From a virus (Duplodnaviria; Heunggongvirae; Uroviricota; Caudoviricetes), in IMG/VR virus record IMGVR_UViG_2869947659_000007, positions 1 through 26,870 of that record: a stretch of DNA of 26,870 nucleotides; one strand, given 5' to 3'. The position numbers were made by a program. Numbering within the stretch: the first letter of the stretch is position 1; each line of letters starts with the position of its first letter. Below, in pieces: positions 20,901-26,870 of this stretch.

Positions 20901-23900
20901 CAGCAGAGGTGGCATTGCTTTTTCGATAGCTGGTAACAACGCCTGAATTTTTTTAAGCGCATCAGGGGTGTCTTTCTCCACCCAGCGGAAAATTTTCTGA
21001 GTATTGCGAGCCAGGGCTTCCGGATGGCTGTCGTCATACAGTTCCGGGAACGTCATTCCCAGCTCGAAATACGCTTTGGTAATTTTCGCAGCCGGTACTT
21101 TTTCGCCGTCCGGATGCGCCCAGGCATTCATCGCCATGCGGATGTGTTCATGCTTGATTTTCATGAATCAACTCCCATCAGCTTTTTCGTAGTAGTTTTA
21201 TTCCTGCCAATAGTTAAAATTGCATCGGCAGAAAATAATCCGTTTGATGCAAGAGCGATTTTTTCAGCGTAATTTGTTTCGCCGGTATATTCTGTGCGAG
21301 GCAATTTTCCGTTATCCATCCATTTATAGATTGCTCTTTGGCTGACACCACAAACGTCGGCCACAACAGCAACGCGAACAGTTTTGATTACATCTTCAAG
21401 TGTTTTCTGGTTCATATCACCCTCACAATGTGAACTTTGAGTACATGCCATAACAGAACTGACAGTACATTCAAGAGCGAATATCATTGAACTTATGGTT
21501 CATGAAGATAAAGCGCGTAAAGAGTTCGCCAGTAGGCTTGCGCTAGCCTGTGAAAACGCTGGTTATGAACAACATGGAAGGCAGGCAGAAATTGCCCGTC
21601 GAATGAAATTAACACCAAAAGCGGTTAGCAAATGGTTTAATGGCGAAACAATTCCTCGCCGGGAGAAATTAAGGGAATTAGCAACACTAATAGGAACAAC
21701 ACCAACCTATCTTTTGGGAGAGGATACAGAAGAAAGTGGACAGGTACGTTTCTATCAGGAGTTAAATCCAAGACAAAAAATCATCATTGACCTTCTGGAC
21801 GAGCTCCCTGACAGTGAGACAGATGAACTTTTAAAAACTCTTGAAGAGAAAAAACAGAAGTACAATGCAATTTACGAAGAGTTAGCACGAAAGAAAAAAC
21901 AAAAAGCCTCTTAAACCAGCATAAATCCGGTAGCGCCTTCCTCCGGGTTTGTGCTTCACTTTATCCCATCTCATTTTTTTACACACAAAATGTACCATAA
22001 GCACTTTACAACAATGAACGCAAAGTACATTATATGCCTGCCACCCACCCCGCCCCACAGAATGCAGGGCAATACTTCGAGTTACCAGGCAGTGGTCAGG
22101 GGTTAAGTAGCCAGCCCGAGGCGTAAGAACATGACGGCAGGGTTCAACTTTAATAACTATGCAGCAGGTTTTTGTTCCGCTACCCCGGCGTTAAGGGGAA
22201 ATGAGGTCAGCATGGATACTATCGATCTTGGGTAATGACTCCAACTTACTGATAGTGTTTTATGTTCAGATAATGCCCGATGACCTTGTCATGCAGCTCC
22301 ACCGATTTTGAGAACGACAGTGACTTCCGTCCCAGCCTTGCCAGATGTTGTCTCAGATTCAGATTATGTCGCTCAATGCGCTGAGTGTAACGCTTGCTGA
22401 TAACGTGCAGCTTTCCCTTCAGGCGTGATTCATACAGCGGCCAGCCATCCGTCATCCATACCACGACCTCAAAGGCCGACAGCAGGCTCAGAAGACGCTC
22501 CAGTGTGGCCAGAGTGCGTTCACCGAAGACGTGCGCCACAACCGTCCTCCGTATCCTGTCATACGCGTAAAACAGCCTGCGCTGACGTGATTTAGCACCG
22601 ACGTAGCCCCACTGTTCGTCCATTTCAGCGCAGACAATCACATCACTGCCCGGTTGTATGCGCGAGGTTACCGACTGCGGCCTGAGTTTTTTAAGTGACG
22701 TAAAACCGTGTTGAGGCCAACGCCCATAATGCGTGCACTGGCGCGACATCCGACGCCATTCATGGCCATATCAATGATTTTCTGGTGCGTACCGGGCTGA
22801 GAGGCGGTGTAAGTGAACTGTAGTTGCCATGTTTTACGGCAATGAGAGCAGAGATAGCGCTGATGTCCGGCAGTGCTTTTGCCGTTACGCACCACGCCTT
22901 CAGTAGCGGAGCAGGAAGGACATCTGATGGAAATGGAAGCCACGCAAGCACCTTAAAATCACCATCATACACTAAATCAGTAAGTTGGCAGCATTACCCA
23001 AAAAATGACAAAGTAAGAAAACGCCAGGGAATTAAAGGTGGTTTTTACTGGACTACAGCAAAAAAATTATCTGTTGCAATCTCCCGCTGCATTACCGCAA
23101 TGGATGACAACGATTATGATGAAGACGACTTTAAAAAACCCGTCCGCGTCAATTTGCCCGTTGTTGACGACCTTCCGCCAGAAGGCGTGTTTGATACTGA
23201 ATTCTGCAACCGCTATGAAAAAGGCGGGAAAGATGGCATCACAATGACATTTATCGGCCCTTCCCCCTCTGTTCAGGACAAATCAGCCAGCACTGATAAT
23301 ACCAACATCAACGGCGAAGACATGACTGAGATTGAGGAGAGCATGCTTCTACCTGTCTCCGGTCAGGAACTGCCCATTCGTTGGCTTGCTCAACACGGCA
23401 GCGAAAAACCAGTAACGCACGTTTCACGCGACGAACTCCAGGCATTACACATTGCACGGGCTGAAGAACTACCGGCTGTTACTGCCCTGGCTATTTCGCA
23501 TAAAACCAGTCTGCTCGACTCGCTGGAGATTCGCGACCTCCACAAACTGGTTCGTGACACTGACAAAGTTTTCCCTAATCCTGGTAATTCAGACCTGGGA
23601 CTAATAACTGCTTTTTTCGAAGCATACTTGGACGCTGACTACACTGATCGGGGCCTGCTGACAAAAGAGTGGATGAAAGGAAATCGTGTTTCACGCATCA
23701 CCCGCACGGCTTCCGGTGCTAATGCTGGTGGTGGGAACAAAACCGATCGCAATCCGAATTTAGTACACACCCTCGACACACTGGATGTGGAGATTGCAGC
23801 AGCCACACTTCCGATGGATTTTAATATTTATGAAATTCCGGGCAGCGTTTATCGTCGCGCAAAAGAAGTAGTCCTGAAAAAAGAAAGTCCGTTCAAAGAA

Positions 23901-26870
23901 TGGTCCGCAGCACTTCGTGCACCCCCGGGTATTCTGGACTATTCCCGCGCCGCTATTTTTGCACTTATCCGAAGCGCACACCCTGAATTTTATCACTACC
24001 CGGGACGCCTTCAGGGGTATATCAACGCCTATTTGACGGAAACTGATCACGAGAACCCCAGCAAGGAAACTCTCACAGCTACCCGGCATACGCCGGAAAA
24101 AGATATCCTGGAAGAAATTAACCGCGAGGTGGTTACTGAGCGTGAAACAGAAGAAGAAAAACCACAACCATCTGACGCAATGGCAGGTGAACAGGCAACA
24201 ACTGAAACAATGGAACCGGATACAACTGAACATTGCCAGAACGCGCAGTCGCTGGATGCTCAGTCGCAGGTGAGTTCCGCTAACCAAGTAAAAGTCACCG
24301 CTGACGAAGTAAACAAAATTATGCAGGCAGCCAATATCAGCCAGCCTGACGCCGATAAGTTACTTGCTGTATCGCGTGGTGAATTTGTTGAGGGGATTAG
24401 CGACCCTAATGATCCGAAATGGGTCAAGGGGATCCAGACTCGCGATTCTGTGAACCAGAACCAGCATGAATCGGAACGGAACGACCAAAAAGCGGAACAA
24501 AACAGCCCAAATGCGTTACAAAACGAGCCAGAAACGAAACAATCCGAACCAGTAGCGCAACAGGAACCGGAAAAAGTCTGCACCGCCTGCGGTCAGAGCG
24601 GTGGCGGCAACTGCCCTGATTGTGGCGCGGTGATGGACGACGCAACATACCAGAAAACATTCGATGAAGAGAATCAGGTTGAAGTTCAGGAAAATGATCC
24701 GGAGGAAATGGAAGGCGCTGAACATCCACACAAGGAGAATGCTGGCAGCGCTCAGGACCACGCCAGCGATAGTAAAACTGGCGAGACGGCAGATCCCTTA
24801 ATTACGGTGAATGGTCATCACGAAATCACATCCACCAGCAGGACGTGTGACCATCTAATGATCGACCTTGAAACCATGGGAAAAAATCCTGATGCCCCGA
24901 TCATCTCAATAGGTGCAATATTTTTCGATCCGCAAACCGGAGATATGGGACCCGAATTTAGTAAGACTATCGATCTGGAAACTGCTGGCGGAGTCATTGA
25001 TCGGGACACCATTAAATGGTGGCTTAAGCAATCACGCGAAGCGCAATCTGCCATTATGACCGATGAAATCCCGTTAGATGATGCACTGTTACAATTGCGG
25101 GAATTTATCGACGAAAACTCCGGTGAATTTTTTGTTCAGGTCTGGGGAAATGGAGCCAACTTCGACAACACGATTTTGCGCCGTTCATACGAACGGCAGG
25201 GGATCCCCTGCCCGTGGCGTTACTACAACGATCGCGATGTACGCACAATCGTTGAGCTGGGGAAAGCCATAGACTTCGATACCAGAACGGCTATTCCATT
25301 CGAAGGTGAGCGCCATAATGCACTTGATGACGCTCGTTACCAGGCAAAATACGTTTCAGCTATCTGGCAAAAACTGATCCCGAGTCAGGCTGATTTTTAA
25401 TGTTCAACCCTAATTGCCGCTAACCGTATATAGTTAGCGGCGGTTATGAGATATAGCTATGAGCAGCTTATTTTTAACCGAAGATGAATTGCTAATATTA
25501 ACGGGCTGCAAATATGCAAGCCACCAGCGAAAATGGTTAATGGAAAACGAGCTTCCGTTCTATACCAATCGTAGTGGCAAACCGATTGTCAGCCGGGATC
25601 TATTTACCTGCAATAAAACTTTACCACCACGCGAGGTAGAGCCGAATTTTGGTGCGATCTGATGGGAAGACGAAGGAAAAATCCTGAGCACGAAAAATTA
25701 CCTCCAAATGTATACCCAAATAAATATAGTTATGTATGGAAACCAACATCCAGCGAATCTGTAACACTAACCGCCATCAAGGATGGTTTAGCTGCTTTAT
25801 GGAAAAAGTATGAGGAAACTGTAAATAATCGCGATCGTGCAATGACATTCGGTCGCTTGTGGGAAAAATTCCTCGCCAGCGCCTATTACAGTGACCTCAG
25901 TCCAAGAACACAAAAAGATTATCTGCAACATCAAAAAAGTTGCTTGCCGTATTCGGTAAGGTGCCGGCAGATTCCATAAAACCAGAACACATCCGTCGAT
26001 ACATGGACAAGAGAGGGGAACAGAGTAAAACGCAAGCCAACCATGAAAAAAGCAGTATGTCCCGCGTTTACAGTTGGGGGTATGAGCGAGGGTACGTGAA
26101 GGCTAACCCATGTGCAGGTGTAAGTAAATTCAAGGCCAAAAACCGCGAACGATATGTAACCGACAAAGAATACCAGGCAGTATTAAGCGTTGCACCTCTT
26201 CCTGTTTTTATCGCAATGGAAATTGCCTATCTGTGTGCAGCGAGGGTTTCCGATGTGTTATCGCTGAAATGGGAGCAGATTGGAAACGACGGGATCTTTA
26301 TCCAGCAAGGGAAAACAGGAAAAAAACAGATAAAAGCATGGAGTCCACGATTACAGGCGGCGATCGAAAAAGCAAAACAGTTACCAACATCCGCCTATGT
26401 AATCAGCAATCAATACGGCAACCGATATATGTACAAAGGCTTTAACGAAATGTGGGTAGAAGCAAGAAATCGCGCAGGCAAAATTTCAGGTATTTTAACC
26501 GACTGAGGTAGCCTGAGTTTAACGGACACTCCTTCCTGAAATAGAATGGCATCAGAAGGAGCTAATAATGAGCAGAAAAAACCAACGTTACTCTAAAGAG
26601 TTCAAAGCCGAAGCTGTCAGAACGGTTCTTGAAAATCAACTTTCGATCAGTGAAGGCGCTTCCCGATTATCCCTTCCTGAAGGCACTTTAGGACAATGGG
26701 TTACCGCCGCCAGAAAAGGGCTCGGTACTCCTGGTTCCCGCACGGTGGCTGAACTGGAATCTGAAATTCTGCAACTGCGTAAGGCGTTAAATGAAGCTCG
26801 CCTTGAGCGAGATATATTAAAAAAAGCAACAGCGTATTTTGCACAGGAGTCGCTGAAAAATACGCGTTAA

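Follow-up and report, generated by a model that had tools for sequence, protein, structure and literature searches.

Full-length RecE, the exodeoxyribonuclease VIII of the Rac prophage of Escherichia coli K-12 (b1350; PF06630 plus PF12684), is the standard enzyme for linear-linear recombineering and direct cloning. The protein carries a PD-(D/E)XK 5'-3' toroidal nuclease, and its N-terminal two-thirds are described as "of unknown function" in two recent reviews (PMC11611040, PMC11610958). Nucleases of another kind, grouped in the Pfam family PF16473, include T4 DexA (exonuclease A; 8KEL/8KEN), a stand-alone protein of 227 amino acids (aa) with extra loops that comes from a virulent phage, and EcD, a stand-alone DexA homologue of about 189 aa from E. 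coli (HAK9828821.1). The substrate preference of DexA was reported to switch with its oligomeric state, and EcD, named "HREX" by its authors, digests T4 DNA or DNA containing 5-hydroxymethylcytosine (5hmC), not unmodified DNA, and protects E. coli from T4 (PMC12153337). Here, we analyzed an exonuclease gene on a 26,870-nucleotide stretch of Caudoviricetes DNA, IMG/VR record IMGVR_UViG_2869947659_000007 (positions 1 to 26,870, referred to below as the window). The gene represents a family of lambdoid-prophage early genes whose products are natural RecE chimeras: a folded module of approximately 365 aa, a linker, and a zinc ribbon are kept, and the nuclease is swapped.

The open reading frame (ORF) inspected is one uninterrupted plus-strand frame, 22824-25400, within which a 766-codon reading starts at an ATG at 23100-23102. 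An earlier description of this locus, made from the sequence only (hereafter, the sequence-only reading), had taken these 766 aa as the complete protein. The open frame is real and its product has been deposited, but the size was wrong: the intact gene encodes 813 aa, the copy in the window is truncated by IS1, and the 766-aa reading begins at Met48 of the intact protein. Residues are numbered according to the intact 813-aa E. coli protein (an example is WP_038338946 of E. coli FDAARGOS_944) unless stated.

The N-terminal region, regarded as unknown in the sequence-only reading, turned out to be that of RecE. In a Pfam search, it matched PF06630 (Exonuc_VIII, enterobacterial exodeoxyribonuclease VIII) at 23127-23525 with 123.9 bits against a cut-off of 25 (E=1e-35), and the first ~616 residues aligned with residues 50-592 of K-12 RecE at 58% identity, with long blocks above 90%. 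Common to the two proteins are the folded module (residues 15-380; 23001-24098, plus strand), the acidic, mostly disordered linker (residues 381-625; 24099-24833, plus strand), a 14-residue motif, and a CxxC-x7-CxxC zinc ribbon (C541-x2-C544...C552-x2-C555; 24579-24623, plus strand). The ribbon and the long acidic linker ahead of the nuclease had been recognized correctly before; the linker has an isoelectric point (pI) of 4.26 and a net charge of -35 and is predicted to be disordered. With a pI of 5.35 for the N-terminal fold, the whole protein is acidic, which argues for protein binding over direct DNA binding.

Homology to RecE stops at ADPLIT in the chimera and ADPVIV in RecE, from where RecE continues into EDIEPGIYY; no alignment extends beyond residue 616, and the point of divergence is the start of the crystallized PD-(D/E)XK nuclease domain of RecE. 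The NCBIfam equivalog model for ExoVIII, NF007259, covered only model positions 1-603 of 877 and scored 941.7 bits against a cut-off of 1269, hence failing. No match to PF12684/DUF3799, which in RecE spans residues ~600-866, was detected in the protein, whereas RecE itself matches, and no RecE_C match was found anywhere in the window. The failed equivalog model and the missing PF12684 nuclease domain indicate that the gene is not one of the well-characterized recombination exonucleases, the case that would have refuted the sequence-only reading; the contrast that this reading drew with RecE holds for the catalytic cassette but not for the first ~616 residues, which are the RecE N-terminal region.

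The C-terminal domain (24852-25367, plus strand) matched PF16473, the "Rv2179c-like 3'-5' exoribonuclease" family, over profile positions 2-177 of 177 with 227.7 bits against a cut-off of 27 (E=1e-67). Although identity to T4 DexA is only 27%, residues D636, E638, D736, H786, and D791 (D589, E591, D689, H739, and D744 in the 766-aa numbering) align with DexA D7, E9, D119, H186, and D191, and all five are invariant in an alignment of 13 fused and stand-alone homologues. The DexA entries were the only solved relative found by sequence, with E=4e-8 for the domain alone and 1.7e-22 for the 13-sequence profile; sequence and profile searches of solved structures returned no Rv2179c entry at E up to 1. 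As proposed in the sequence-only reading, the C-terminal domain is, by homology, a DnaQ-like DEDDh 3'-5' exonuclease, with predicted metal-dependent activity and with its catalytic motifs in proper DEDDh alignment.

Relatives of this domain are widespread. When the full-length protein was used as a query, 762 phage records matched, nearly all over the C-terminal domain only, and stand-alone versions are found in the early regions of both temperate and virulent phages. Examples are gp04 of phage phiSTEC1575-Stx2k, 60% identical to the window domain, and gp12 of Vibrio phage yong1, early-region genes of which some lie near int. These stand-alone PF16473 exonucleases have no N-terminal extension, and their neighbors vary (5'-deoxynucleotidase, polynucleotide kinase, methyltransferase); in the neighborhoods of stand-alone homologues from five phages, we found no consistent partner pointing to a pathway. 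An EcD-like protein of 189 aa, which starts with MIDTET and has Ala at position 78, in agreement with the published description of EcD (PMC12153337), was recovered from viral contigs by means of the published primer, so that its identification as EcD is indirect; it is 38% identical to the window domain (E=9e-38) and, like DexA and the Stx2k-phage protein, falls in PF16473. EcD itself carries no N-module of the RecE type, and its closest relatives in the phage collection lie in 35-kb Klebsiella phages, which are P2-like. The published reverse primer for EcD and the 3' end of the gene for the 189-aa protein disagree at one base (GAAACAT versus GAACAT; PMC12153337 supplement), owing to either a different cloned allele or a typo in the table. 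The same paper gives a catalytic residue as "E12", and the T4 DexA sequence has E9 and G12 (PMC12153337).

Several observations bear on how the two halves came together. At the DNA level, the gene is a mosaic with respect to recE, being 92% identical over nucleotides 340-792 and 94% identical over nucleotides ~1700-1790, with 40-60% identity in other segments; the 94% block lies directly 5' of the swap junction, and this pattern fits cassette exchange by recombination between prophages. The DEDDh domains of E. albertii and E. ruysiae (match at 6001-7737 of these loci) share 98-99% identity with that of the window, yet the N-terminal part before them is far more divergent, matching RecE only from residue ~278 and at 39% identity, which shows that nuclease cassette and N-module have different histories and assort independently. 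Searched with the N-terminal 600 aa, 1.8 billion 50%-identity representatives yielded only 259 relatives. Among N-module relatives of at least 430 aa, approximately 17 end in a DEDDh domain, approximately 23 in a RecE-type nuclease, and approximately 46 in neither. In the last group, apart from a single RecT fusion and a single weak match to DUF3799, a Pfam scan saw PF06630 only and detected no third type of nuclease.

To describe the fold of the N-module, an AlphaFold (AF2) model was built from an 80-sequence alignment; a single-sequence run of the 813 aa gave a mean predicted local distance difference test score (pLDDT) of 36.7. The alignment-based model gives residues 15-380 a fold with pLDDT above 90 at most positions, in which a helical part comes after a small alpha/beta part, while residues 381-613, the end of the modeled segment, are largely disordered save for short helices and the zinc ribbon. 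Foldseek searches of the PDB and BFVD revealed no structural relative of residues 15-380; the faint hints obtained, ParB/SopB-type helix-turn-helix domains at a probability of 0.06-0.08, are not meaningful. The prediction of an orphan fold applies equally to residues ~1-370 of K-12 RecE. Compared to two diverged alleles, the ratio of nonsynonymous to synonymous substitution rates (dN/dS) was 0.12-0.24 for the N-terminal fold, 0.14-0.28 for the nuclease, and 0.39-0.73 for the linker, values that come from small substitution counts. On these ratios, both folded parts are under purifying selection that is stronger than that on the linker. The model, with its fold, disordered linker, and nuclease, and the selection pattern both fit the proposal of the sequence-only reading that a separate module is tethered to the nuclease.

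In intact E. coli prophages and in the sequenced phages examined for operon order (vB_EcoS-640R1 and an Stx2a phage), cI/dicA is followed by ydfA-ydfB-ydfC-dicB-ydfD-exonuclease-xis-int; dicF lies between ydfC and dicB in K-12 Qin. This early-left (dicBF) operon is repressed by DicA in the lysogen. The Rac counterpart reads kilR-ydaE-racC-recE-recT-ralR-xisR-intR, so that RecE is likewise placed at the int-proximal end of a lambdoid early-left operon, 3' of a cell-division inhibitor gene (kilR or dicB). The exonuclease gene therefore does occupy a recombination-exonuclease slot, as had been noted: its neighbors are xis/int, and it closes the early-left operon in the place taken by recE-recT in Rac. 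The two types of locus differ in RecT. In tblastn searches, RecT adjoined all four Rac-type recE loci, whereas none was detected within 6 kb of any of eight DEDDh-type loci or in the window, and no annealase is annotated in the operon of the loci examined.

The chimera is common. At least 80% of the queried region was present in 1083 of the 5426 complete E. coli genomes, about a fifth, where the gene is annotated as "exonuclease" or "3'-5' exonuclease", and near-identical database entries from E. coli, Shigella, and E. fergusonii number in the thousands. A contig scan yielded close relatives only, and hence no outer limit of the taxonomic range; these were Escherichia and Shigella together with two metagenome-assembled genomes: one labeled Veillonella, whose copy is 94% identical and is probably a binning contaminant, and one labeled Proteobacteria, which has a Rac-type recE-recT locus. 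In the literature searched, we found no paper describing a fusion of a DEDDh exonuclease to RecE and no reported function; the fusion is frequent and generically annotated, and it is uncharacterized in that literature. Two K-12 genes were considered as relatives and rejected: YdfE, which occupies the Qin slot after dicB-ydfD, is not a remnant of the gene, as BLASTP found no similarity, and exoD of the DLP12 prophage is unrelated.

The N-module has thus been joined to a nuclease of another superfamily and opposite polarity, without RecT, under purifying selection, and in about one-fifth of complete E. coli genomes. Altogether, this argues that the function of the N-module is independent of 5'-3' resection and of RecT. 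The explanation that we favor, and hold to be probable, is that the intact protein is a domain-swapped RecE carrying a DexA-type DEDDh exonuclease, RecT-independent and directed to DNA 3' ends in the phage early program. The protein would be made only upon derepression of the prophage early operon; its C-terminal domain would trim 3' ends by two-metal catalysis. The substrate is most probably DNA, given that the characterized proteins nearest to the domain, T4 DexA and E. coli EcD, both act as exonucleases on DNA. The N-module might serve as an adaptor independent of the nuclease, guiding whichever nuclease it carries to one common site or partner, for example, DNA ends or a host protein, and the whole protein would process or destroy linear DNA in the lytic phase without need of RecT. 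The purpose may be to process ends in recombination or repair, to degrade DNA of the host or of competitors, to exclude superinfecting phages, or to counter defenses. The locus is chiefly of value because it amounts to an experiment of nature on the N-terminal region of RecE, which has long gone unexplained: the two natural chimeras provide a ready-made comparison for finding its function. In addition, the fusion adds lambdoid prophages to the range of the little-studied DexA/EcD family, and it may plausibly take part there in conflicts between phages or between phage and host.

Several points weigh against the favored explanation. We infer the polarity, DNA substrate, and adaptor role of the fusion, the first two from homology and the last from the pairing of the module with two types of nuclease. 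A 3'-5' exonuclease leaves 5' overhangs, which are not used by the canonical single-strand-annealing or RecA pathways, and with a pI of 5.35, direct binding of the N-module to DNA ends is not obvious. The approximately 46 N-module proteins without either nuclease may be fragments, or the module may work alone, and the small counts behind the dN/dS values also count here. Finally, the Pfam family is named after an exoribonuclease, Rv2179c of Mycobacterium tuberculosis, so the substrate may be RNA. The protein would then be a 3'-5' exoribonuclease or oligonucleotidase that trims transcripts or small RNAs, or one that destroys oligonucleotide immune signals as a counter-defense. Consistent with such a substrate, many copies are labeled "3'-5' exoribonuclease" at NCBI, DEDDh enzymes include many RNases and dinucleotidases, and an early-operon position is typical of counter-defense genes. 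However, among solved structures only that of a DNA exonuclease, DexA, was detected as a relative, with no Rv2179c entry at E up to 1, the N-terminal partner derives from a DNA recombination enzyme, and there is no genomic association with any signaling-based defense system. RNA and DNA specificity are not separable computationally, and on this evidence we regard an RNA or small-nucleotide substrate as unlikely.

About as improbable, in our estimate, is that the gene encodes a prophage-borne antiphage nuclease of the HREX type, which would spare unmodified host DNA, digest 5hmC-containing or otherwise modified phage DNA, and thereby exclude superinfecting phages. DicB, encoded in the same operon, has been reported to protect against some phages. 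The activities of EcD against T4 DNA and T4 phage (PMC12153337) and the 38% identity of the EcD-like protein to the window domain, within one Pfam family, speak for this idea. Loss of a tetramer-forming Asp, D90 of DexA, by change to Ala was held responsible for the sparing of unmodified DNA by EcD (PMC12153337), but the window protein keeps Asp at the corresponding position (D708), as does the Stx2k stand-alone homologue, in contrast to Ala78 of EcD. DexA residues W152 and D169, which have been linked to 5hmC recognition (PMC12153337), correspond to Y756 and F773, respectively; the W152 column varies among Y, W, V, R, and H in fused homologues, and F773 is flanked by two Asp residues in a region (that of D169) where the alignment is uncertain. 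PADLOC found no match to a defense family, and the gene is situated in a repressed early operon rather than in the position of a moron expressed in lysogeny. Moreover, the HREX claim itself comes from one study with plasmid expression, and the identification of EcD here was indirect.

That the protein is a functional equivalent of RecE or lambda Exo, i.e., the resection nuclease of a phage single-strand-annealing recombination system, appears least credible of all, despite a genomic slot shared with Rac recE and 600 aa in common with RecE. T4 DexA contributes to double-strand-break repair in intron homing. A preprint reports that 3'-5' resection by ExoIII supports annealing-based in vivo cloning in E. 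coli (bioRxiv 10.1101/454074). Against these precedents stand a catalytic domain of another superfamily with opposite polarity, the failed ExoVIII equivalog model, and the lack of RecT within 6 kb of the eight loci or of an annotated annealase in the operon. The RecT-binding region of RecE lies in its C-terminal nuclease part, which is absent from the window protein. Generic processing or destruction of linear DNA ranks first, HREX-like defense and an RNA or oligonucleotide substrate are the main rivals, and classical RecE-like recombination is unlikely.

A bolder form of the favored explanation is speculative, and we give it a low, though not negligible, probability. The N-terminal 600 residues of RecE might be a portable targeting or adaptor module, coupled interchangeably by lambdoid prophages to nucleases of opposite polarity, whose orphan fold binds a specific host or phage factor; the DEDDh form might then serve on induction as a weapon that needs no RecT and degrades linear DNA, beginning at the 3' ends. 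It could be aimed at the DNA of competitor or incoming phages, at that of the host, or at the nucleic acid of a defense system. If this were true, comparison of the two natural chimeras would reveal the function of the RecE N terminus.

The copy in the window no longer has the structure of the intact gene. Upstream of it, a DicA/CI-like helix-turn-helix repressor gene (21495-21914, plus strand), identified from HTH_3 and P22_Cro matches and from the annotation of equivalent genes, marks the immunity region directly 5' of the ydfA-dicB early operon. Of this operon, there follow the first 6 codons (MDTIDL) of a ydfA-like (DUF1391) gene at 22212-22230 (plus strand), cut by a complete IS1 element of 768 bp (22231-22998, minus strand). 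The element was recognized by its ends and by Pfam IS1 transposase and InsA domains, with insA at 22668-22943 and insB at 22246-22749, both on the minus strand. In megablast comparisons with the 5,426 complete E. coli genomes, homology to intact prophages begins exactly at 22999, right after IS1. The intact gene has 2,442 nucleotides (nt) and 813 codons, and position 22999 is its nucleotide 41; what is left of the gene thus spans 22999-25400 (plus strand), from the final 2 nt of codon 14 through the stop codon at 25398-25400, and the native start codon, the ribosome-binding site, and the first 13 codons are gone. Compared to the reference, the prophage of E. coli CH10508 (L002), IS1 stands in place of 1,594 bp (L002 4407-6000), with flanks that match up to 4406 and again from 6001; the ydfA match stops 19 nt into the DUF1391 coding sequence of L002. 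The deleted interval comprised the rest of ydfA, ydfB, ydfC, dicB, the DUF1482/ydfD gene, and the 5' end of the exonuclease gene, and, going by the K-12 Qin map, the position of dicF. No target-site duplication is present at IS1, which marks the event as an IS1-associated (IS1-mediated adjacent) deletion. With dicB, the IS1-linked deletion took out the cell-division inhibitor gene of the early operon.

Over the 799 codons that are left, only three changes, L23Q, T322P, and A775T, separate the window copy from the intact E. coli protein, which argues that inactivation was recent. We conclude that the window copy is probably a recent pseudogene that lost its start, promoter, and operon to IS1. 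The exact 766-aa product has already been deposited as "exonuclease [Shigella boydii]", which fits the insertion sequence-ridden, decaying prophage of the window. This deposit, together with the open frame and the three substitutions, could be taken to mean that the 766-aa ORF as written is a native, expressed gene of this genome. We consider that very unlikely, as homology to intact genes reaches 101 nt 5' of the ATG, up to the IS1 end; IS1 replaces the native start and the upstream operon; no promoter-like site was found on the plus strand upstream of the ORF, and the 20 bases before the ATG at 23100 show nothing resembling a Shine-Dalgarno sequence; and the adjoining integrase gene is likewise a pseudogene. 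What may weigh against complete inactivity of the truncated copy is that read-through or IS1-derived transcription, with translation from Met48, is conceivable. For annotation, this means that the Shigella boydii "766-aa exonuclease" is best regarded as a probable IS1-truncated pseudogene.

Directly 3' of the exonuclease gene, a DUF4224 xis-like gene occupies the excisionase position (25459-25662, plus strand), followed by the tyrosine integrase pseudogene (25662-26504, plus strand). The latter has lost 1 nt from an A-run near 25937, which shifts the frame, and an element of the IS3 family (26505-26870 within the window) has taken the place of its last ~200 nt; orfA of this element (26568-26870, plus strand) extends past the window end. 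ORFs in the same two-ORF arrangement (100 and 272 aa) lie at 14667-15823.

Elsewhere in the window, the order at 11180-12336 is yeeJ (minus), tRNA-Asn (minus), mtfA (minus), and tRNA-Ser (plus), then tail-fiber-like remnants, not int. Since int-xis-exo abut tRNA-Ser in intact E. coli genomes, a tRNA-Ser without adjoining int indicates that the prophage remnant has been inverted or rearranged relative to its attachment site, presumably via insertion sequence copies. An additional IS3-family element at 3832-5036 (plus strand), with an ALIL frameshifting pseudoknot at 4113-4220 (RF01497, 101 bits), overlaps the end of a yeeJ-like ORF of 2007 codons (4918-10941, minus strand), so that this adhesin gene is probably truncated. 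A further IS1 copy occupies the window start, from 1 to ~700. Finally, a full-length sok antitoxin RNA (17220-17395, minus strand; Rfam RF01794, 118.9 bits) implies that the prophage remnant contains a toxin-antitoxin locus of the hok/sok type, comparable to hokD of Qin.

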